In this document: piece by piece, positions 3,270-30,506 of the stretch
Layout of the letters: every line of letters starts with the position of its first letter
Position numbering within the stretch: position 1 is the first letter of the stretch
Assembly: GCA_964518565.1 (NCBI GenBank)
Contig: CAZFGX010000001.1
Span: 460,470 to 524,469, forward strand
DNA: 64,000 nucleotides
Source: an uncultured Gammaproteobacteria bacterium
GTDB taxonomy: Bacteria > Patescibacteriota > Microgenomatia > CAZETR01 > Amesbacteraceae
Reading direction: 5' to 3'
Position numbers and translations under genes: made by a program
The notes under the pieces: generated by a model
Told to the model about the DNA's origin: nothing
The model's database searches: none
What the model saw: the letters and a program-made list of their open reading frames with translations, nothing else

Positions 3270-4466
3270 CTAGTCTGAATCCCAGTTCAGATAAGTATCT
3301 TTATGGCTTGTGCTGGGCAGGACAATTTCTCGAAGAGAGCGTATCAAACGATCAACATCTTCTTTTGAAGTATAAATTTGCATGCTTACTCGAACTGAGT
3401 CTGCAAACTCGCTATTGGGATCCATACACATCTTTCCAGTTCGGACATAAACCCCGAATTCACTCAATCCAAACCCAATATCATCACTAGACAGACCAGT
3501 TATTTTGAATGACACAATTCCATATCCAACTGCACATTTTGCAAGTGCTACTCCTGGCAAGAATTCAATCGCATTAATGGTCCTTAATTGCTCAACCAAA
3601 TAATGAGTAAGCTCAAATTGTTGCTGAGATATGGCTTCAACTCCAATCCTCTCCATAAAGCTGATTGCTGCTTTCAAACCAATAATTCCAGACAGGTTGA
3701 GAGTGCCAACTTCTTTAAACAATCTTTCATCACGTCTGGAGTAAAGTATTCCAATTCCAGTGGGGGCAAACATCTTGTGTCCAGAGAAATATACAAAATC
3801 AGCTCCAAGATCATCTACACGAACCACTACCTTTCCTATACTTTGACTACAATCAACAATAATTCTAATCGATGGATCAATCTGATCTTTTATGTCTTTA
3901 AAAGTTGTCTTAGTTCCAAAAACATGATGAATATGTGTACCAATAATAAGACGTGTTTTGGAACTTACTTTCTTTAGCAGGTCATGTTTGTCTACTTCAC
4001 CTATGGCATTCGTCTTGTAGGCAACGAGATTTATATTAGCTCCATAACTATTTAAAATATTTTGTACTTCAATCCATGGTTCAATCGTCGATTTATGATC
4101 CTGATCACAATATAAAATCTCATCTCCATCTTTCAAGTTAGTAAGACCCCATTTGCAAGCAATTAAATGTGCACTTTCGCTTGCTCCAGAAGTAAAAAAT
4201 ACATGAGTTTGATCCTCAGATCCAATGAAATTATCCACCATCTTTCTTGTCTCTAATACTTCTTTCGTAATTTGATTTGCCCAACTATAGCTTCCACGGT
4301 CTGCGTTGGCGGTTTCACTTGTTAAATAAACAGAAACAGCATCCGAAACTATCTTTGGAACTTGTGTCAGCGCTCCGCTGTCTAAGTAGCAAATACTCGA
4401 ATCGGCAATTGCTGGAAAGTCTTGTTTCATGATGTTTTCTCCATAACCAGTCCAGCATCTCGCCAA
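3270..4466 (-). CDS. cysteine desulfurase (class V aminotransferase, SufS/CsdA-like)
   Basis: FSGHKMFAPTGIGILY PLP-lysine motif; 398 aa; overlaps the upstream gene by 40 nt (operon). Confidence 0.85.
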   Translation of the reverse strand: MARCWTGYGENIMKQDFPAIADSSICYLDSGALTQVPKIVSDAVSVYLTSETANADRGSYSWANQITKEVLETRKMVDNFIGSEDQTHVFFTSGASESAHLIACKWGLTNLKDGDEILYCDQDHKSTIEPWIEVQNILNSYGANINLVAYKTNAIGEVDKHDLLKKVSSKTRLIIGTHIHHVFGTKTTFKDIKDQIDPSIRIIVDCSQSIGKVVVRVDDLGADFVYFSGHKMFAPTGIGILYSRRDERLFKEVGTLNLSGIIGLKAAISFMERIGVEAISQQQFELTHYLVEQLRTINAIEFLPGVALAKCAVGYGIVSFKITGLSSDDIGFGLSEFGVYVRTGKMCMDPNSEFADSVRVSMQIYTSKEDVDRLIRSLREIVLPSTSHKDTYLNWDSD

Positions 4467-5731: not shown

Positions 5732-7144
5732 TTAAATAGGTAAATAATGTTCGTCTAAATACCAACAGAATCTGTCACCATCCTCAACGACAGCAACCTT
5801 TTTTAATTTTGGTTGCATCAATGCTTCACTGGCTGAAAGATCCATTTGGTAAGCTGCTGTATTTATAAACATGACTAGATCGCCTGGCTGAGGGATTTTT
5901 GATACAAATGTCTTGTGACTGTAAATAAGATTTTTTTCCAAGCAAAGATTTCCAGCAAAAAAGATGCCATGTTCACCTGATTCATATTCTTCGTCTGGTT
6001 GCCGATAGAGGATGACTGGATCTAACAAAATAGCTTGATCGGCTGGTACCAAGTCGTCTCGTTTGATATTGAGATGAACAAGAATCTCTCCTGAAGTGCC
6101 GTATTTTATTGATTCAACTTGTGAGACTGTAATTCCCACATGATCCAACAAGGCCTTACCCGGCTCGATATAAAGGTTAGCCATCGAGTCTTTAAGAAGT
6201 GATTGAGTATCTCCAGAATGCGTGTTTAATTGGCTTGTAAGAAGCGTAGTCAATTGTTCGTAACCTTTTGACTGATTGGCATAACGATGGAAGGTTGGAA
6301 TACCTTCCAAACGATCGTTTGTCTGTCGATATCCAAATGTTACCCCTGGCCAATGTAGAGCTTCAGATTGGCCCAGAATCCCTAATTTGAGAGCTGTTGA
6401 ATATTTATCTAGATCATTTGTATCTTCTAAGAAGACTTGCCTAAACCCTCCACCAATATCAATAATTGACGGTGAAAATCCTCTGTTTTGAAGCTCTTCC
6501 AAAACAGAAAAACATTGTTCAATTGCAGTAAGTCTCTCCTTTGCCTCAGAGGTATCTAAATGAAATGACAACCCTTTGAGATCAATACAATTAGAGTAAG
6601 TATTTAATAGAGTAATTGCAGCATCAAGATCTTTTATTGGAATCCCAAATCGACTGGGTTTATGGGAAGAAGAAAAGCCTGATAGACGCAAAAGTAATGG
6701 CTGTTTTGTTTGAAGTTTGCTCGCTAATTTAGAGACGTACTCCAACTCAATAAGACTGTCTATGCTGATCAGAACGGAGTGAGAAACTGCGAGATATAAA
6801 TATTCTTTATTCTTGGGGCCAGTCGCCAATATCTTGTTTCCTCTAAATCCGCACGACAGTGCATGTTTTAATTCGTTGGCCGACGCAACGTCTACATAGA
6901 TTTCATCTAAATGAGCCTGACGAACAAGAGCTGACGACTGATTGGCTTTGTGGGCATAATAAACCCTTCCTGACAAAGCAAGATTATTGAAGACACTTTT
7001 AAACTCCTCAATATTCTCAGAAAATATCTGAGGGAAAACAATATTTAGGGAACCACCCATGCATTGAACAAGGTTAATAAGTGCCTCTTTTTCAGCAATG
7101 AAACGAGAAACAATAGAGTGAATTTTGGGTTGCAAACGCAACAT
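5732..7144 (-). CDS. PLP-dependent decarboxylase, Orn/DAP/Arg decarboxylase (alanine-racemase fold) family
   Basis: YAHKANQ (PLP lysine), IDIGGGF glycine-rich motif; 470 aa; 3 nt upstream of the CysK-rhodanese gene. Confidence 0.75.
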   Translation of the reverse strand: MLRLQPKIHSIVSRFIAEKEALINLVQCMGGSLNIVFPQIFSENIEEFKSVFNNLALSGRVYYAHKANQSSALVRQAHLDEIYVDVASANELKHALSCGFRGNKILATGPKNKEYLYLAVSHSVLISIDSLIELEYVSKLASKLQTKQPLLLRLSGFSSSHKPSRFGIPIKDLDAAITLLNTYSNCIDLKGLSFHLDTSEAKERLTAIEQCFSVLEELQNRGFSPSIIDIGGGFRQVFLEDTNDLDKYSTALKLGILGQSEALHWPGVTFGYRQTNDRLEGIPTFHRYANQSKGYEQLTTLLTSQLNTHSGDTQSLLKDSMANLYIEPGKALLDHVGITVSQVESIKYGTSGEILVHLNIKRDDLVPADQAILLDPVILYRQPDEEYESGEHGIFFAGNLCLEKNLIYSHKTFVSKIPQPGDLVMFINTAAYQMDLSASEALMQPKLKKVAVVEDGDRFCWYLDEHYLPI

Positions 7145-16097: not shown

Positions 16098-17321
16098 TTA
16101 TTGTAAAAACCGTTTAAAATTCAATTTTGCGCTGGTGGCGCTAGTAATAGACGTCTCTATTACATCAGAGAATACATTTGCCAATGAATAAGAGTCAGGA
16201 GCAGTATACGTCTTCTTGACAAAGATTTTGTCCCCATTTAATACGGTATTTAACATTTGAATAGTTTTATCATAAATATACTGACTATTCGGTACATAAT
16301 CTTCTGGTCGAGGAGCCATCAAAACCGCATAAGAGTCTACTTCATCGGGTTTTTGTCCAAAGCGAGCTGAACCTTGATTAATCTGCCATGTACCAGGAGA
16401 CCACTGATAGGTTTGTGGTGCCAGACTGCATGCCAAATAATTCAAAGCTTGGTTACTGCAACCACCATTGTTTTCATCCAAACTACAATCAGACGTCCCA
16501 CAATTGGCATTCGTCAAAGCAGTATTTGGTAAACCGTCTGTGATAAGTACAAAAATCTTTTTTACCATTGGAGAAACACTATAGTAGCCGTCAGCTACCA
16601 TTCCCGGAGCTCCTAAATTCGTACCTGCACCATTTTGTGCCACAGGTGGTAATAAATTTGGCGAATCGCAAATCCAGGCATCGTCCTGGGTGTACCATGT
16701 TTGTGCGGTCAATTTATTCAGAGTAGTTTGATGATCGTTTGTTGGATACTGAGTCCAATCAGCCGCTCGCCGGGTCGCAATAATACCCAAATAATATTTA
16801 TCTTTGCTGGTTTGATCTAGATTTGTAATATTTGTCACCAAAGACACAAAGGCTTGTTGGGCACGTGTGATCCGATGTGTGGAGTCGCTAGGGGAGACTG
16901 GATCATTCATAGACGGTGAACAATCAAATCCTACAATAAATTCCACCTTATTAAATTTTTCTAGACTTCCTGAAATAAGTTCAGATTCAACCTTCATATT
17001 ATTAGACGCATATGGCCATTTGGCCAAAAAGGTAATCAGTGTTCCTCCGGGTGTTGCTGTAGTATTTACATCTAGAGTTTTTCCCGCCCCGATATTTTGA
17101 GAATAAGTACCTGGTGTATAGCTAGGATAAAACAACATTTTTGTCACCACATCCACTGTTTCAAATTCAGCTCGATACGACGCGTTGGTCAAATCATAGA
17201 AAGACTGTTTTCGATTAATAGCCAGTAGTAAACGAGACTCCCAGGCTAACAACAAAAAAATCATCACTACTGACACCATAACCACGACAACAAATGAAAC
17301 AATGCCTTTTGTATTTCTCAT
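16098..17321 (-). CDS. pilus-associated von Willebrand factor A (vWA) domain protein with N-terminal TM anchor (module A)
   Basis: MIDAS DxSxS (GFDCSPSMN), VLITDGLPNT, many extracellular Cys; paralog of 20936-22150. Confidence 0.7.
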   Translation of the reverse strand: MRNTKGIVSFVVVVMVSVVMIFLLLAWESRLLLAINRKQSFYDLTNASYRAEFETVDVVTKMLFYPSYTPGTYSQNIGAGKTLDVNTTATPGGTLITFLAKWPYASNNMKVESELISGSLEKFNKVEFIVGFDCSPSMNDPVSPSDSTHRITRAQQAFVSLVTNITNLDQTSKDKYYLGIIATRRAADWTQYPTNDHQTTLNKLTAQTWYTQDDAWICDSPNLLPPVAQNGAGTNLGAPGMVADGYYSVSPMVKKIFVLITDGLPNTALTNANCGTSDCSLDENNGGCSNQALNYLACSLAPQTYQWSPGTWQINQGSARFGQKPDEVDSYAVLMAPRPEDYVPNSQYIYDKTIQMLNTVLNGDKIFVKKTYTAPDSYSLANVFSDVIETSITSATSAKLNFKRFLQ

Positions 17322-17818
17322 AGAGTGACTGCCTGTTTTCGATTAGATACAACAATATCAACAGTATCAGTAGTAGTGGACACATTGCTCCGCATGGTCA
17401 ATGAAATTTTATAGCTTGGATATACAGTGCCATTAGAGTCTACTGCAGTAGTAAACGCAGTAATTTTAAATGCGTTTACCACGACATTTGAACCACTAAT
17501 GGGGGATTCGGTATTGGCTGCAATATCCTTTTTTACCAATACGCCATTGGAAATATAATAAGAAGTTTGGGTATTTATAGTCAGAGTTGCATTACTGTTT
17601 CCATCGCAACTCGTACAAGTAAATGTATTACCCCACTTGATCGCATTTGTTAGTTCTACTGCTGCATCGTTTTTAAATTGTTCTAGAGATTCTTGGTTGA
17701 CTCCTTGAGAATTTTTTGTTGCTGCAGACACAAAAATAAACGTAGATACCGACAAGACAATAGCTGCTAGCCCCATAGACAAAACCAGTTCGATGAGTGT
17801 AAAACCCTTTTGTCTCAT
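17318..17818 (-). CDS. type IV pilin-like (minor pilin/pseudopilin) protein
   Basis: Prepilin N-terminus MRQKGFTLIELVLSMGLAAIVLS; paralog of 22147-22662 (both end ...SNRKQ). Confidence 0.7.
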   Translation of the reverse strand: MRQKGFTLIELVLSMGLAAIVLSVSTFIFVSAATKNSQGVNQESLEQFKNDAAVELTNAIKWGNTFTCTSCDGNSNATLTINTQTSYYISNGVLVKKDIAANTESPISGSNVVVNAFKITAFTTAVDSNGTVYPSYKISLTMRSNVSTTTDTVDIVVSNRKQAVTL

Positions 17819-18339
17819 AAGTTAGAAATAAGTAAAGAGTTACTAATACATTTTGTTTGTTTATTTTCATCCCACTTCACAATTGATGTCAAAACCCTAC
17901 TATGAGTGTCAGCCACATATCCAGAATTGCAAGTTAAAGTAAAACTAGGTTCAGTTACACATGCATCTGTTTGAGCTGGTTTTTGTAGCGTCCCATCATT
18001 AGTATTCCGACACCAAGCAGACACGATCAGTGCTCGGCTATAACGATTTTTTACTAGTTCAGTAGCTCCAGCCGCCAAAGACTGCAGCTGCCAAGCATTT
18101 TGTGGAGAAGACACAGAAGTTACTGTATATCTCCCAGTAGAATAGGCATTCCAGTTCGTCAAAAAAACATTGTAGGCAGATTCCTGTGTTTGTTGCAACA
18201 ACAATGCAGCCTCAGTACCGTATTGTGCTTGTCGATTTCTTACAATCATCAGAGCAATAAGCGGATAGATAGAACTGACTAAAATAGCAATAATCCCAAT
18301 AGAAATCAGTGTATCGATGAGTGTAAATCCTGGTCTCAT
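17815..18339 (-). CDS. type IV pilin-like (minor pilin) protein
   Basis: MRPGFTLIDTLISIGIIAILVSS; paralog of 22659-23186 (shared AYNVFL..W motif). Confidence 0.7.
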   Translation of the reverse strand: MRPGFTLIDTLISIGIIAILVSSIYPLIALMIVRNRQAQYGTEAALLLQQTQESAYNVFLTNWNAYSTGRYTVTSVSSPQNAWQLQSLAAGATELVKNRYSRALIVSAWCRNTNDGTLQKPAQTDACVTEPSFTLTCNSGYVADTHSRVLTSIVKWDENKQTKCISNSLLISNL

Positions 18340-18391
18340 ACCCTATACCATACTAGCACTTTTTGCGTTTGTTGACTAAAATACGCATACT

Positions 18392-18425
18392 GCGGGTATA
18401 GCTCAATGGTAGAGCACCAGTTTTC
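18392..18425 (+). repeat. duplicated 5' portion (nt 1-34, through the anticodon 5' stem and loop start) of tRNA-Gly(TCC)
   Basis: gcgggtatagctcaatggtagagcaccagttttc is identical to the start of the full tRNA at 18745. Confidence 0.8.
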
Positions 18426-18487
18426 TCCGCCAATAGTTTCACAATTTGGCGGATCCGCCTGAATGCAAAGCTTTCGGCGGACAAACT

Positions 18488-18754
18488 ATGTATTACACAT
18501 ACGTACTACATTGTGAGTCTTTAAAAAAGCAAGTTTTTTATACCGGGTATTGTGAAGATCTAAAAAACAGAATAGAAGAACATAAATCTAAAAAAGTACA
18601 GACTACTAAAGTATTTGATAAAATCACTTTGGTCTACTATGAAGCCTGTTTAAATAAAACAGATGCTCGTAAACGAGAAATTCAGTTAAAAACTGGCTTT
18701 GGTAGAGGATATTTGAAAAATAGATTAAAATCCTATTTACAAATGCGGGTATAG
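18488..18754 (+). CDS. GIY-YIG nuclease superfamily protein (UPF0213/YhbQ-like)
   Basis: YTYVLHCES...FYTGYCEDLKNRIEEH...LVYYEA...ARKREIQLK; the last 10 nt overlap the 5' end of tRNA-Gly. Confidence 0.75.
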   Translation: MYYTYVLHCESLKKQVFYTGYCEDLKNRIEEHKSKKVQTTKVFDKITLVYYEACLNKTDARKREIQLKTGFGRGYLKNRLKSYLQMRV

Positions 18755-18818
18755 CTCAATGGTAGAGCACCAGTTTTCCAAACTGGCTACAGGGGTCCGA
18801 TTCCCCTTACCCGCTCCA
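18745..18818 (+). tRNA. tRNA-Gly (anticodon TCC)
   Basis: Acceptor gcgggta/tacccgc, anticodon loop ttTCCaa, CCA encoded. Confidence 0.85.
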
Positions 18819-18847
18819 AGAGTTGCATTAAGGCGTATAGTAAAGAT

Positions 18848-19231
18848 ATGACAGGGTATGTAGCAGATATCGAAAAGTTAACAGAAGAAAACCAAAACTT
18901 TAGACAAGTCTTGTTTACCAGTCAACATGTCCAAGTCGTTGTCATGCACCTTCAGCCAAAAGAGTCTATTGGAGTAGAGGTTCATGAAGTGGTGGACCAA
19001 TTTCTACGCATCGAGCACGGAGAGGGAGTAGTAATAATGAACGATCAAGAACATTCTATTAAATCAGGCTATGCAATAGTTGTGCCTGCCGGCACAAAAC
19101 ACAATGTCATAAACACATCTTCTACCGAGTCGTTGAATCTCTACACAGTCTACTCACCTCCACACCACAAAGATAAGATCATCCACAAAACAAAACAAGC
19201 GAGCCAGTCAGACACGACCGATCATATCTAA
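18848..19231 (+). CDS. cupin domain protein
   Basis: Two-His cupin motifs (HEV...H...G, PAGTKHNVIN). Confidence 0.6.
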   Translation: MTGYVADIEKLTEENQNFRQVLFTSQHVQVVVMHLQPKESIGVEVHEVVDQFLRIEHGEGVVIMNDQEHSIKSGYAIVVPAGTKHNVINTSSTESLNLYTVYSPPHHKDKIIHKTKQASQSDTTDHI

Positions 19232-20935: not shown

Positions 20936-22150
20936 CTATGGTGTAGGTGTCGGATCCAGCGTCCGATTAAATGTGATGGTAAATGCTGATGTAAAAATAG
21001 ATTGAAATATGGATTTAAATGATTCAGCCAATGATTCTGCATTCGCATTTACAAAAGGTGGTTGTTTGACATAGTCCGGATTACTAAATACATCCATGGT
21101 CAATTGATAAGCATTTTTAATAGTAGATGGGTCGTATGCATTTTGCTCAGCTACTGTCACGGCATAGACGTCTACTTGTGGTAAACGAGTTCCAAATATA
21201 CCCGTACCACTCCAATCTTTATTCGTAGTTGCCAAACTACACTTTAAATTATTTACCGCCTGAATCGTACATGCACCAGTATCTTCTGGCTCACTACATT
21301 GGGTTACTCCACAAGCCAGATCCGTCCTTGTCGTGTTTGGAAGTCCATCAGTAAATAAGATATATGCTTTTTTGACCCGAACATTATCGGTAAAATATGT
21401 CCGATTCAAAATAAGACCCGAATCGCCCAAATTTGTCCCAGCATTTCCTGGAATATCCATAAGACCTGTTGTGCGACAAAGCGGACTATTGGAAACAGAG
21501 TTCCAAGTACCAGAATTATCTACCAAATTTTGCAAACGAGAAAGATCATTGGTTGGCTTTACTTGTCCCAAACTATCAGTCGCCCAAGCAGCTGTACGTT
21601 GAAATGGCATGAGTCCTAAATAAAATTTGTCTCGAGTCGCAACAGGAGTAATGTTTGTAATCTCTCTAATAAATGCGCTTAACGCCTTTTGCAATTGGTA
21701 TATTCTAGATGTTCCACAGGTCGGACATGCTTTACTATTCATACTTGGTGAACAATCAATCCCCATGGCAATCTCTACTTTGTCAAAGTTTACAGTGCCT
21801 TCACCAGAATTTGTTTTGGTCAGTTGAAAACTTGTAGATGCATATGGCCAGCGAGCCAAAAAATCTAATGTCCGATTTTCAGATGTGCCAGTGGCTGTGA
21901 CTTGGAGTGATTGTCCTGGGCCAAAATTACGCAAATAATTTGAACCCATATCAAAATTGGGATATTTTAAATATCGGTGCACCAAATCAAATACTTCTGA
22001 TTCAGCAGCGTAGTCTGCTGCCAAAATGTCCGACAAAGAACGATGACGATAAACTGCCAACAATAGACGCGACTGCCAAGTAAACACGATGAACAACGCG
22101 ACAATCGAAATCATAATGACAATAATGATTGTGGCAATTCCTTTTTTCAT
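20936..22150 (-). CDS. pilus-associated vWA domain protein with N-terminal TM anchor (module B)
   Basis: MIDAS GIDCSPSMN, ILFTDGLPNT; paralog of 16098-17321. Confidence 0.7.
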   Translation of the reverse strand: MKKGIATIIIVIMISIVALFIVFTWQSRLLLAVYRHRSLSDILAADYAAESEVFDLVHRYLKYPNFDMGSNYLRNFGPGQSLQVTATGTSENRTLDFLARWPYASTSFQLTKTNSGEGTVNFDKVEIAMGIDCSPSMNSKACPTCGTSRIYQLQKALSAFIREITNITPVATRDKFYLGLMPFQRTAAWATDSLGQVKPTNDLSRLQNLVDNSGTWNSVSNSPLCRTTGLMDIPGNAGTNLGDSGLILNRTYFTDNVRVKKAYILFTDGLPNTTRTDLACGVTQCSEPEDTGACTIQAVNNLKCSLATTNKDWSGTGIFGTRLPQVDVYAVTVAEQNAYDPSTIKNAYQLTMDVFSNPDYVKQPPFVNANAESLAESFKSIFQSIFTSAFTITFNRTLDPTPTP

Positions 22151-22662
22151 TGTGTGATTGTTTGTTTACGGTTAGATGCAATAAATGAAAAAGTATCCTT
22201 CAAAATACTCGAGCCCTTTGCTTGTAATTCTATATCGATTGAATAACTAGGATAAGGTGAAATCCAAGCAGATCCATCCCAACTGCGTACGGCTGACCGA
22301 TCGCACACCAAAAATCTATTTACTTGTACATTGGCAGAGGTCAGAGCAGATCCTGCCCTTTGTAGAGACTGATTATTTACAGCATATACAACCGTATCAA
22401 TCGTCAGCGATGAGTTTTGCATTGAGCTCGAATTGCAATCACAATTCTGACAACTAAACACCTTTCCCCAGCGTATGGCATTTGATAAATCTGTAGAAAT
22501 ATCATTCTTAGTCTGCTCAAAGAGTTCCTGAGACTTACTGGATTGATTCGTCCCAGTAATATTTAACAAAAATCCTGAAACCACCAAGAACACGATACTA
22601 GACATGGCTAATGCCACCAATATTTCAAGTAGTGTCATACCTGGTTGTAGAGTAGTTTTCAT
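22147..22662 (-). CDS. type IV pilin-like (minor pilin) protein
   Basis: GMTLLEILVALAMSSIVFLV N-terminus; ends SNRKQTITQ like 17318-17818. Confidence 0.65.
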   Translation of the reverse strand: MKTTLQPGMTLLEILVALAMSSIVFLVVSGFLLNITGTNQSSKSQELFEQTKNDISTDLSNAIRWGKVFSCQNCDCNSSSMQNSSLTIDTVVYAVNNQSLQRAGSALTSANVQVNRFLVCDRSAVRSWDGSAWISPYPSYSIDIELQAKGSSILKDTFSFIASNRKQTITQ

Positions 22663-23186
22663 AATTTTGTAATGAGTAAAGTAGCCTGAATATGTTTAGG
22701 TGCCAATTTTTCCCGCCAATCAACAGACGTAGTGACCAATTTACTGTCTGGATCGATTGCGTATCCAGCATCACACCCAGGATTTGGTTCAGGTGGTGAT
22801 TGCAATTTGCCCTGATCTTCGCCAGTCCCATTAACCAACCTACATACAGGCGATACACGTATAGTTCGGCCAAACATACCTACTTCATCCACTTCACCTA
22901 CTGCCATTGGCACCAGCGTCCAACCATCTGGAGAAGTACCGTCCCCAGGATCAGTCCGCGAAACTGCATAACGATAATTACCTTCACCAAAACTATCCCA
23001 ATCATCTAAAAATACGTTATAAGCCACCTCTGCCCCTTGCTGCAAAATTATCGCCGCCTGACTATCGTATTGGAGTTGTTTACTTCTGGTAATTAGCCAA
23101 CCCACAACTGGATACACACTCACAAAAATGACTACAAGCATTGCCACAGACAAAACCACTTCCAACAATGTCACACCTGATTTCAT
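22659..23186 (-). CDS. type IV pilin-like (minor pilin) protein
   Basis: MKSGVTLLEVVLSVAMLVVIFVSV; homologous to 17815-18339. Confidence 0.65.
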   Translation of the reverse strand: MKSGVTLLEVVLSVAMLVVIFVSVYPVVGWLITRSKQLQYDSQAAIILQQGAEVAYNVFLDDWDSFGEGNYRYAVSRTDPGDGTSPDGWTLVPMAVGEVDEVGMFGRTIRVSPVCRLVNGTGEDQGKLQSPPEPNPGCDAGYAIDPDSKLVTTSVDWREKLAPKHIQATLLITKL

Positions 23187-23629
23187 GGACCCACCTCCAC
23201 AATACCCGTTGCGCTGATACGCACCTGAATGGTTTTTGCATTTGGTGCCCGTAAAATAATTGTTTTCGCCGTAGTGTTACCTGTCCCTTTCTCAAACCAG
23301 ATGCTAAACATAGCTCCAGAAAAAACCAGTGGATTTTCTATCGAATATTCAGCCTGATTAGATGGAGACGGATCAGAGCTAGAGGTACGCGAACGGAATC
23401 GGTATGTAGTTGCATCCTGCTGGGTGACACCCCACTCCTTATTATCTTTGGCTTCGCGAGCAAAAATATGTGCCTGTGTCAAAACGTTTTTCAATTTTTC
23501 TGCCGAAGAGTTTAATGCCTGGTTGTTTCGCATTGAAGAGATGACAAAAAAACTTGGCACACTCACAATTCCAACAATTGCAATTACAATCAGTAACTCA
23601 ATGAGGGTCATGGCAGCAGCAAATTTCAT
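23183..23629 (-). CDS. type IV pilin-like protein
   Basis: MKFAAAMTLIELLIVIAIVGIVS, a class III signal-peptide-like N-terminus. Confidence 0.7.
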   Translation of the reverse strand: MKFAAAMTLIELLIVIAIVGIVSVPSFFVISSMRNNQALNSSAEKLKNVLTQAHIFAREAKDNKEWGVTQQDATTYRFRSRTSSSDPSPSNQAEYSIENPLVFSGAMFSIWFEKGTGNTTAKTIILRAPNAKTIQVRISATGIVEVGP

Positions 23630-23638
23630 AAACTAATA

Positions 23639-24106
23639 CTAGCGTATCAAAACTTCAGCTCTGGTGCTAATAATAGGCAAATCTGGCACGATTGTTTTGA
23701 TACTCTCTGCAGGAATAGATACATGATACGTTCCAGGTACATCAGCTACACCCTCAATACTCCCTAGGCGAACTGTACCTGAAAATGCCTGTGAATACAT
23801 GAGTGTACTAGAAGTCAAAGAAATAGCTGGGTCAGCCTTAATTGTGCCTGACACTTGCGGAATAATCCCATACTTATCTTTATATTGACCCATGATATAA
23901 AAATGAAACTTTTGCCCAGGCGCAGCAACTACTGCTGGTGGATCAAACCAGATCCGTAATTTACCTGCTTCTTCGTCTGCTTTTACAAAAAAAGGTAGAT
24001 CACCTTTATTTAATACTCCTGCAATCAAGACCGGTAAAAACGCCGCAATTCCCACTACACCAAAAAACATGCTTTTCGCTTTTGATTCAGCCCGAAACAT
24101 ATCCAT
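23639..24106 (-). CDS. membrane-anchored hypothetical protein (first gene of pilin/vWA module B)
   Basis: N-terminal TM FFGVVGIAAFLPVLIAGVL; 155 aa. Confidence 0.4.
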   Translation of the reverse strand: MDMFRAESKAKSMFFGVVGIAAFLPVLIAGVLNKGDLPFFVKADEEAGKLRIWFDPPAVVAAPGQKFHFYIMGQYKDKYGIIPQVSGTIKADPAISLTSSTLMYSQAFSGTVRLGSIEGVADVPGTYHVSIPAESIKTIVPDLPIISTRAEVLIR

Positions 24107-27026: not shown

Positions 27027-27108
27027 GGGCCGGTGGTGAAACTGGTATACACGTACGCTTGAGGTGCGTATGCCGCAAGGTGTGGAGGTTCGAGTCCTCT
27101 CCGGCCCA
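27027..27108 (+). tRNA. tRNA-Leu (anticodon GAG)
   Basis: gggccggtggtgaaactgg..., anticodon loop ttGAGgt, long variable arm. Confidence 0.8.
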
Positions 27109-27167
27109 CACAACTTCCTCACGATTTTCCAAAGCACGTAAACAATTTGTAAAGGAGTGTTATAGAT

Positions 27168-27738: not shown

Positions 27739-27821
27739 GGGCCGGTGGTGAAACTGGCATACACGTACGCTTCAGGTGCGTATGCCCAAAAGGCGTGGAG
27801 GTTCGACTCCTCTCCGGCCCA
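27739..27821 (+). tRNA. tRNA-Leu (anticodon CAG)
   Basis: Near-identical backbone to tRNA-Leu(GAG); anticodon loop ttCAGgt. Confidence 0.8.
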
Positions 27822-27840
27822 CCGAAACCTTTTACAATTT

Positions 27841-30127: not shown

Positions 30128-30413
30128 GGGCTGGTGGTGAAATTGGTATACACGCAGGTTTTATAACGAGCGAAGTACAACGAAGCGAGATATATGAAAG
30201 GATCCAAGAGCGAATGCGATTGGGAGGTTTCCTTTCATATGAACCTGTGGGAAAATAGGCTGGTAAATCTGGGCTGGTGGTGAAATTGGTATACACGCAG
30301 GTTTTATAACGAGCGAAGTACAACGAAGCGAGATATATGAAAGGATCCAAGAGCGAATGCGATTGGGAGGTTTCCTTTCATATGAACCTGTGGGAAAATA
30401 GGCTGGTAAATCT
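30128..30413 (+). repeat. two perfect tandem 143-nt repeats; each is tRNA-Leu(TAG) nt 1-35, then a 74-nt structured insert, then the anticodon 3' stem, then 22 nt of non-tRNA sequence
   Basis: Units 30128-30270 and 30271-30413 are identical; the insert contains a 12-bp perfect stem catatgaaagga/tcctttcatatg. Confidence 0.85.
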
Positions 30414-30496
30414 GGGCTGGTGGTGAAATTGGTATACACGCAGGTTTTAGGAACCTGTCTCCAAAAGAGGTGGAGGTTCGAGTCCTCTCCAGCCCA
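30414..30496 (+). tRNA. tRNA-Leu (anticodon TAG)
   Basis: gggctggtggtgaaattggtatacacgcaggttTAGgaacctg...; long variable arm. Confidence 0.8.
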
Positions 30497-30506
30497 CAAA
30501 AAAAAC

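Follow-up and report, generated by a model that had tools for sequence, protein, structure and literature searches.

The tRNA-Gly locus of the window

The window analysed here, a 64,000-nucleotide stretch of contig CAZFGX010000001.1 from a bacterium assigned to Patescibacteriota, carries at 18392-18818 a compact unit in which a partial and a complete copy of tRNA-Gly(UCC) enclose a hairpin-forming sequence and a small gene encoding a GIY-YIG nuclease. The first component (18392..18425, + strand) is an orphan 5' tRNA copy comprising linear nt 1-34 (canonical nt 1-35), 100% identical to 18745-18778. It is followed by a strand-neutral double-hairpin element (DH) made of hairpin H1 (TCCGCCAA...TTGGCGGA, 18426..18453) and hairpin H2 (TCCGCC.GAA.GC...GC.TTCGGCGGA, 18454..18481), both defined from the fold, the family alignment and a covariance model. 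The tRNA sequence then resumes on the + strand for six nucleotides (CAAACT, linear nt 35-40, 18482..18487, identical to 18779-18784) directly 5' of the ATG of an 88-aa open reading frame (ORF; 18488..18754, + strand) that matches Pfam PF01541. The end of this ORF, which encodes the C-terminus LQMRV, overlaps the intact tRNA-Gly(UCC) gene (18745..18818, + strand; ARAGORN and Rfam), its stop codon TAG at 18752-18754 being U8-A9-G10 of the tRNA.

The two tRNA copies form a 35-nt direct repeat of 100% identity (18391-18425 and 18744-18778, spacing 353; repeat finder), the sole long repeat of the region. This length counts T18391; the tRNA part, i.e. the 5' 34 nt of the intact gene, occurs exactly twice in the window versus 0 expected occurrences (100 shuffles). 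Only the second copy is called as a tRNA, namely tRNA-Gly(TCC) at 18745-18818 (71.4 bits with Rfam), the only one of its type in the window; neither ARAGORN nor Rfam calls a tRNA at 18392-18425. The orphan copy ends after linear nt 34, i.e. canonical nt 35, the middle anticodon base, which places the insertion point of the DH between canonical nt 35 and 36 of the anticodon (35|36). As the tRNA resumes beyond the DH, the upstream relic is not a bare half but tRNA nt 1-40 carrying a 56-nt insertion.

From the repeat spacing, the inserted unit would be 353 bp long (18426..18778, + strand) and would comprise the DH, the 6 nt of tRNA, the ORF and the 5' part of the replacement tRNA. Its excision in silico restores the flank followed by an uninterrupted tRNA; given the repeat, 18392-18744 is an equivalent parse. 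The window holds one such cassette. The orphan copy probably represents the 5' part of the resident gene, displaced but still located behind the resident promoter.

The initial annotation of this locus had described an orphan tRNA-Gly copy breaking off in the anticodon loop and a GIY-YIG ORF reading into the 5' end of the intact tRNA. Both descriptions stand: the former is borne out by the exact 35-nt repeat and its stop at canonical 35|36, the latter by the Pfam match and the position of the TAG at tRNA nt 8-10. The 62-nt two-hairpin leader that it had also proposed does contain two 28-nt hairpins, but its last six bases, CAAACT, belong to the resumed tRNA.

A family of cassettes in Patescibacteria

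At least 940 homologues of the ORF were found, nearly all of them in Patescibacteria. An exhaustive profile search retrieved 749 clusters (50% identity level) at E <= 1e-10, two of which constitute a tight subfamily. A scan with strict search patterns of one genome per species (185,579 species genomes) gave 105 hits, and the layout of the window recurs at 80 Patescibacteria loci in as many further genomes. Loci and sequence records are designated below by L numbers.

At 74 of the 80 loci, a tRNA gene lies just downstream of the ORF. This is a tRNA-Gly (CCC, TCC or GCC) in 64 cases and a tRNA-Val, Ile, Ala, Thr or Asn in the 10 others. The ORF stops inside the tRNA at 60 of 75 loci, and exactly at U8-A9-G10 in 45. 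A 5' copy of the downstream tRNA is kept beside the DH at about 50 of the 70 scorable loci; these relics are exact over 33-37 nt in 13 loci, the others ranging down to heavy decay. In most family members, 3-17 nt of resumed tRNA sequence separate the DH from the ATG.

The position of the DH within the relic varies among loci. About 38 loci have it at 35|36 of tRNA-Gly(CCC/TCC), and about 22 in the D arm or D loop (nt 12-17) of tRNA-Gly; in tRNA-Val, Ile, Ala and Thr it is located at 21|22, and in four loci it immediately follows the 3' end of a complete tRNA-Pro. The last four (L010, L074, L056 and L073) belong to one clade in which the DH, at about 2916-2983 in L010, abuts the 3' end of tRNA-Pro(UGG), no partial tRNA copy is present and, in L056 and L073, no tRNA lies downstream of the ORF. 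The cassette may exist here in a simpler version.

Within the same set of loci, more distant paralogous ORFs (37-58% identity) follow the general layout of the family at tRNA-Gln, Leu(CAG), Thr(CGT) and Ser(CGA) genes (L020 ~1860-2274, L007 ~2330-2865, L023 ~3650-4178 and L080 ~3780-4267). In L020, L007 and L023, what breaks the partial 5' tRNA copy in the D loop is not a DH but one long, GC-rich hairpin (CCCGCC...GGCGGG); in L080, a partial 5' copy is seen without such a hairpin. A genome can carry several cassettes, often at neighbouring tRNA genes, and family members are over-represented on contigs of about 1 kb. A full-text search of open-access papers and preprints found no published description of a tRNA-linked GIY-YIG cassette or hairpin element.

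The double hairpin

The 62-nt segment 18426-18487, which holds the two 28-nt hairpins, folds as DNA with -17.4 kcal/mol (z = -5.4), a value equalled by none of 200 shuffles. A DH is present at 76 of 81 loci, with a length of 48-105 nt and a location 6-70 nt upstream of the ATG. In an alignment of 44 DH sequences (22 pairs, 963 pair cells), 97.7% of the cells are paired and two-sided changes occur at 19 of the 22 pairs; none of 500 shuffles matches this pairing and covariation, and slid registers come nowhere near. Across the family, H1 has a 6-bp GC base, a bulge on its 3' side and an invariant A.A mismatch (44/44), while H2 has a bulge on its 5' side and a T.T mismatch (41/44). H2 is therefore the structural reverse complement of H1.

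A covariance model built from the family alignment gives equal scores on both strands for every DH; in the window, where it matches only once, it scores 69.9 bits on the + strand and 71.9 bits on the - strand. G.T pairs (6 of the 963 cells) are as rare as A.C pairs (4). Because of this strand symmetry and of the rarity of G.T pairs, we infer from the sequences that pairing is selected on both strands and that the DH is probably a DNA hairpin or cruciform element and not an RNA motif. The covariance scan of the leader that had been proposed was negative with Rfam, where only tRNAs were matched in the leader and in the whole window and no family corresponds to the DH; it was positive only with the family-built model. 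A long H1:H2 palindrome was considered as the functional fold and ruled out, as the stems vary independently and their apical parts are not complementary.

In three loci (L022, L025 and L028), two DHs are found in one relic, at nt 12 and at nt 35, which suggests that a DH can be inserted without the ORF. Arrays of DH-flanked tRNA fragments were also observed (L005 3346-3610, L019 3336-3540, L047 2790-2985 and L072 3345-3460). They include tandem units made of a DH and a tRNA 3' half, nested partial copies and units devoid of ORF, for example tRNA[1-21]-DH-GAGCA immediately 5' of an intact tRNA-Val. These arrays suggest repeated events at one tRNA locus.

The nuclease

The 88-aa protein matches the Pfam GIY-YIG domain PF01541 over residues 1-72 (E 1.9e-10, 41.3 bits for a cut-off of 22.6). 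Twenty-four columns are invariant among 30 homologues, including Y5, Y18, R28 and E64, and H32 is nearly so. The four invariant residues are the putative catalytic positions, an equivalence drawn from the Pfam and 1ZG2 alignments and not from a residue-by-residue structure superposition. The family also has its own invariant C-terminal motif, QLKTGFGRGY. An AlphaFold2 model (pLDDT 89) places strands at 2-10, 15-22 and 45-54 and helices at 25-33 and 57-68. By predicted fold, sequence and residues, the protein would thus have the beta-beta-alpha-beta-alpha core of the GIY-YIG superfamily. In the model, this bare core is complemented only by three short basic helices, and both Pfam and AlphaFold2 indicate a catalytic domain alone, devoid of any DNA-binding module.

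Foldseek matches, whose E-values are weak as the protein is small, include the UPF0213 protein BH0048 (1ZG2, top match), At-HIGLE (7WME, TM 0.62), Slx1-Slx4 and UvrC, I-TevI being ranked 41. Profile matches to 1ZG2 (BH0048, E 8e-5) and 1YWL (EF2693, E 0.0036) are also weak, and no family of NCBIfam or PHROGs matches the ORF. On these sequence comparisons, the protein can be read as belonging to a distant sister group of UPF0213 rather than as a clear member of it.

Filled sites, empty sites and split resident genes

Comparison of loci provides evidence for insertion and tRNA replacement. At about 15 loci, a second DH is found just downstream of the intact tRNA and is followed by the 3' part of a tRNA. 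In L033 and L027, a valid tRNA-Gly, whose acceptor and anticodon stems are complementary, results when the upstream 5' piece is joined to the downstream 3' piece, and this joined tRNA-Gly differs from the intact one that is enclosed. In L014, the upstream acceptor strand GCGGGAT was seen by eye to pair with the downstream ATCCCGC, and the pattern fits in part in L026 and L045. Joinable pieces flanking a different tRNA indicate that a resident gene was split by a cassette carrying its own tRNA.

The second line of evidence comes from a syntenic block (PolX, tRNA-Asp, LysM, tRNA-Gly(CCC), pyrG) that is filled in L051, L029, L064, L030 and others but empty in L087, L089 and L090. The latter were retrieved through their pyrG homologues, which are 77-81% identical; at their tRNA-Gly loci, there is no hit of the DH model and no adjoining GIY-YIG ORF. 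Filled loci contain the tRNA-Gly types of the empty sites again, either in the relic or in the intact copy, depending on the locus: the L087 type forms the relic of L028 and L011, and the L089 type serves as intact copy in L022, L028 and L029 but as relic in L035. TATAAT-like -10 motifs are located 8-14 nt upstream of the relic in filled loci and likewise upstream of the tRNA in empty ones, a shared position indicating that the cassette sits behind the resident promoter. In the window, a consensus scan found no sigma-70 promoter or terminator serving the cassette, the two promoter-like matches being no more than expected from shuffles.

In L001 and L004, the cassettes are 87.5% identical, whereas the flanks are 63-68% identical and inverted relative to the cassette; judged by divergence, the cassette appears to be younger than its flanks. 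L033 also has hybrid flanks that can be written T_A-DH-T_B ... T_B-DH-T_A, where T_A is the split resident and T_B the intact tRNA of the cassette. They fit recombination at or next to the DH, in a single clear case. A variant order was observed in L077 (2907-3566), where a complete tRNA-Ile, an ORF without upstream DH, tRNA-Val[1-22]-DH-tRNA-Val'[23-76] and an intact tRNA-Val follow one another; the tRNA-Val/tRNA-Val' is a hybrid with a non-matching acceptor stem. This arrangement looks like an alternative recombination product of the usual layout.

Mobile cassette or resident operon

The feature, which is genuine and not a product of chance, is best interpreted as a GIY-YIG cassette that splits a tRNA gene and restores it. 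That it is one copy of a family of site-specific selfish cassettes, inserting into tRNA genes and replacing the tRNA, can be given a probability of roughly 0.65; any specific cleavage mechanism is much less probable. The initial annotation had proposed a mobile cassette interrupting a tRNA gene of which it provides an intact copy; this proposal is supported at the level of the family, by the recurrence of the layout, by filled and empty sites and by split residents. Likewise at family level, the tRNA-Gly locus exists both with the cassette (L051, L029, L064 and L030) and without it (L087, L089 and L090), and half-tRNAs occur elsewhere; a housekeeping gene deprived of presence/absence polymorphism is not what these genomes contain. 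The intact tRNA rebuilt downstream means that the host keeps its tRNA. In many lineages, the cassette is now an old and mostly vertically inherited resident.

Several points weigh against this interpretation. No empty allele was found for the lineage of the window itself, for which no related sequence is available: metagenome scans with the 3' 45 nt and the 5' 32 nt of the tRNA gave 0 hits, the ORF is absent from contig index records, and the cupin homologues are at most 72% identical, none of them adjoining a tRNA-Gly. Only one cassette is present in the window, and viral contigs yielded no relatives. Since the restored tRNA does not differ from the presumed target, a classical homing enzyme would re-cut its own host; the 88-aa protein also has no DNA-binding domain that could confer site specificity. 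Cassette and flanks have diverged to about the same extent in one syntenic group (68-75% versus 63-78%), which by sequence comparison would fit long vertical persistence, i.e. long residence, or else repeated insertion at one site; over such persistence, decay would be expected of a nuclease gene that is purely selfish. The tRNAs of L029, L051 and L064 differ from one another, yet in each of these genomes the relic half matches the local tRNA exactly, for which gene conversion or re-invasion has to be assumed. A shuffle test gave no support to selection of the DH-enclosing tRNA stem as a three-way junction, flank pairing averaging 4.5 bp versus 4.0 bp in shuffles. Finally, transcription of the unit, competition with RNase P and all cleavage steps are parts of the model that we infer.

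Logan short-read contigs of the same organism from two other samples (L081 1-120, SRR29476910; L086 1-81, SRR16481186) break off, on the two sides of the cassette, within the repeated 5' half of the tRNA. They are uninformative on polymorphism, because the 35-nt repeat breaks assembly anyway.

Among other explanations, the GIY-YIG gene, the hairpins and the tRNA-Gly might form an immobile host unit with a role in repair or in RNA-level regulation, i.e. a domesticated operon derived from an ancient duplication with a pseudo-tRNA leader. The divergence of syntenic cassettes, which is about that of their flanks, the intact and strongly conserved ORF with its 24 invariant columns, the compensatory changes that preserve the hairpins and the precise ORF-tRNA junction in 45 loci would all suit such a unit, as would the stand-alone UPF0213 proteins that are the nearest solved relatives and the GIY-YIG paralogue located near uvrB without any tRNA link in L087. 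This explanation is nevertheless unlikely, since it accounts neither for empty syntenic sites nor for resident tRNAs split around cassettes with a different tRNA. Moreover, the relic halves range from perfect to decayed, which indicates no selection on them; many tRNAs are targeted, with the DH at nt 12-17, 21|22, 35|36 or the tRNA 3' end; the two-strand symmetry of the DH and its lack of G.U pairs speak against an RNA element; and the distribution is patchy (the 105 hits of the strict genome scan). It is still less probable that an untargeted history, in which a tandem duplication of tRNA-Gly was followed by unrelated insertions of hairpins and nuclease gene into the first copy, produced the locus. 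Tandem tRNA duplications are common, the window itself has perfect tandem partial copies of tRNA-Leu(UAG) without nuclease gene, and the relics with two DHs (L022, L025 and L028) point to insertion independent of the ORF. However, the three-part order recurs at about ten tRNA species, the ORF stops at tRNA nt 8-10 in 45 loci and the DH is always 6-70 nt upstream of the ATG, a coincidence that is implausible if it has to be repeated.

Three further readings were rejected as their defining features failed. GIY-YIG genes are classic passengers of introns. The locus might be a decayed group I intron with its homing endonuclease gene, the hairpins being remains of intron helices; position 35|36 is indeed the reported intron site of tRNA-Asn and tRNA-Asp in Patescibacteria (PMC13011429). 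Such an origin is very improbable: no Rfam group I or II match exists in 18200-19000 at E <= 10 or window-wide at gathering score, the 62 non-coding nt could not accommodate a ribozyme core, a whole tRNA and not a half stands in place of the 3' 'exon', and DHs are strand-symmetric and also occur in D loops and after the tRNA 3' end. Furthermore, the genes listed in that study are of the HNH, LAGLIDADG and PD-(D/E)XK types, GIY-YIG being unmentioned (PMC13011429). The least probable of these scenarios, with only a very slight chance of being true, is the att-site scar of an integrase with the GIY-YIG gene as cargo. It draws on the classic use of tRNA genes, including their anticodon loop, as integration sites with partial tRNA duplication, and the hybrid flanks around two DH copies in L033 are Campbell-like, but no integrase or recombinase ORF is found in the 353-bp unit or nearby, the duplicated portion is the 5' one (34 nt) and not the 3' one, and a unit that recurs in 80 genomes is far below any known island in size. 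An insertion sequence or miniature inverted-repeat transposable element (MITE) would require a pair of terminal inverted repeats and a target site duplication, whereas in the window there is a single DH palindrome, at one end only, and the sole flanking repeat is the 35-nt tRNA segment. A REPIN-RAYT system was also dismissed, the enzyme being GIY-YIG and not HUH/Y1 and the DH not being dispersed in the window.

A putative lifecycle

Under the preferred reading, that of a mobile tRNA-replacing cassette, the following lifecycle can be proposed. The nuclease gene and the tRNA would be transcribed by read-through from the resident tRNA promoter. RNase P would cut at tRNA +1, which would remove the stop codon of the ORF and keep the output of nuclease low. 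A break made by the nuclease would then start the spread of the cassette, either by homology-directed copying or by Campbell-type recombination via the tRNA sequences that it carries.

The substrate of the cut could be the DH just as likely as the uninterrupted tRNA gene. The tRNA gene is the presumed target, while the resemblance of the enzyme to structure-specific nucleases and the strand-symmetric DH at the boundary make the DH a candidate. Cleavage of the tRNA gene near the anticodon loop is somewhat doubtful, because the protein is a catalytic domain only and the restored tRNA is identical to the target. A more speculative proposal, which we consider possible but rather unlikely, is that the DH and its minimal SLX1-like nuclease represent an unrecognised mechanism of DNA mobility. 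In this proposal, a structure-specific cut, placed at a cruciform or hairpin and not at a homing site defined by sequence, followed by homology-guided copying would drive the tRNA of the cassette over resident tRNAs throughout Patescibacteria, as a tRNA 'gene drive' whose nuclease dosage would be limited by RNase P, which removes the stop codon of the ORF.

If the cassette reading is correct, a selfish element of about 350 bp can reside inside an essential single-copy RNA gene without splicing, by rebuilding the gene at the DNA level and borrowing its promoter. It would account for orphan tRNA 5' fragments, and probably for some assembly breaks, in Patescibacteria genomes, and it would make tRNA alleles replaceable horizontally. 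It would also offer a natural pair of a minimal GIY-YIG nuclease and a defined DNA hairpin, and a first biological context for the poorly understood stand-alone GIY-YIG proteins related to UPF0213.

Relationships with known systems

The nearest characterised case appears to be SegB from phage T4, a protein of roughly 220 aa with DNA-binding modules, and by analogy the cassette might work like a free-standing homing endonuclease gene. According to the abstract of its description, SegB is a free-standing GIY-YIG homing endonuclease encoded in a tRNA gene cluster, which targets a 27-bp sequence in tRNA genes with a T-psi-C stem-loop motif (PMC2330249). As in the cassette, the GIY-YIG gene lies among tRNA genes and not in an intron, and it spreads together with tRNA genes by replacing the region of the recipient; the abstract mentions no double hairpin, partial tRNA duplication or overlap between ORF and tRNA (PMC2330249). 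SegB is encoded by a phage; for the ORF of the window, whose product is an 88-aa catalytic domain, the search of viral contigs gave no relatives. Among the features of homing genes, a site with and without the element in relatives is found here at family level, but the DNA-binding module that recognises a long site is absent from the 88-aa protein.

Islands and prophages encoding a tyrosine integrase insert in tRNA genes, often in the anticodon loop, and the partial copy that they carry keeps the gene intact. However, these elements restore the 3' part of the tRNA, use an integrase and are kilobases long, whereas the cassette restores the 5' part and is about 350 bp long, its only gene encodes a hydrolytic nuclease and transcription of the tRNA has to pass through the element.

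REPIN-RAYT systems associate inverted hairpin doublets with an adjacent single-copy HUH transposase gene; they are long-lived and largely vertical and show compensatory change. The likeness lies in inverted hairpin pairs next to one small nuclease-type gene, but RAYTs belong to the HUH/Y1 enzymes and a genome has tens to hundreds of REPINs, whereas the DH occurs once in 64 kb, is tied to the cassette and the tRNA and accompanies a GIY-YIG enzyme.

SLX1, At-HIGLE and UPF0213 (YhbQ, BH0048) are the best fold and sequence matches of the protein. SLX1 cuts branched or hairpin DNA and not specific sequences (cf. the title of PDB entry 6SEH), and SLX1-like cutting would, by analogy, suit a hairpin or cruciform substrate such as the DH. 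We know of no link between SLX1, At-HIGLE or UPF0213 and tRNA genes or mobile DNA, and the family described here differs from them by its own motif QLKTGFGRGY and by the absence of an NCBIfam model.

Group I introns that interrupt tRNA genes of Patescibacteria share with the cassette the phylum and the 35/36 point, which is their favoured site; some carry homing endonuclease genes and the tRNA stays functional (PMC13011429). They rescue the tRNA by RNA splicing, whereas the cassette does so by supplying DNA for an intact copy and has no detectable ribozyme core. In rRNA genes of members of the same phylum (candidate phyla radiation, CPR), GIY-YIG ORFs have been reported in insertions that are neither group I nor group II introns (PMC11270868). 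These insertions thus also place GIY-YIG genes in genes for structural RNAs, but tRNA is never mentioned (PMC11270868). Neither PMC13011429 nor PMC11270868 describes the tRNA cassette.

Other features of the window and of a related genome

The window has 12 tRNA genes. Upstream of one of them, tRNA-Leu(UAG) (30414-30497), the region 30128-30497 contains two perfect tandem 143-nt units (30128-30270 and 30271-30413). Each unit consists of tRNA-Leu linear nt 1-36, an insert of about 78 nt with a long hairpin, AACCTGT and 22 nt that abut the next copy. The break is at canonical 35|36, as in the tRNA-Gly relic, and AACCTGT is the resumed 3' strand of the anticodon stem. These units contain no GIY-YIG ORF and no match of the DH model. 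A 29-aa ORF ends in the 5' end of the tRNA-Leu, and its tail ENRLVNL faintly recalls the GIY-YIG C-terminus KNRLKSYL. The tandem units may be a relative of the cassette from which the ORF has been deleted. Three tRNA-Leu genes of the window (GAG, 27027-27109; CAG, 27739-27823; UAG, 30414-30497) are nearly the same at both ends, with no more than 2 mismatches in 20-22 nt at the 5' and the 3' end, and look like recent paralogues.

In L087, where the tRNA-Gly site is empty, a 94-aa GIY-YIG gene (6506-6790, Pfam E 1.1e-17) is located between a UPF0102 gene and uvrB. Its product is 38-44% identical to those of cassette ORFs, and ARAGORN finds no tRNA within several kb. Possibly, this gene stands for a branch of the protein family that is not mobile and has a housekeeping role.

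The cassette lies between two minus-strand modules (16098-18339, encoding proteins of 407, 166 and 174 aa; 20936-24106, encoding proteins of 404, 171, 175, 148 and 155 aa), together with a cupin gene, a YdjM gene and a 371-aa ORF whose counterpart in L081 matches DsbA/thioredoxin Pfam families. The initial annotation had taken these modules for paralogous pilin/vWA modules. Their paralogy is confirmed by the 407- and 404-aa proteins (35% identity, E 7e-70) and by the 174- and 175-aa proteins (34% identity), and the N-terminal sequences of both modules are pilin-like by eye.

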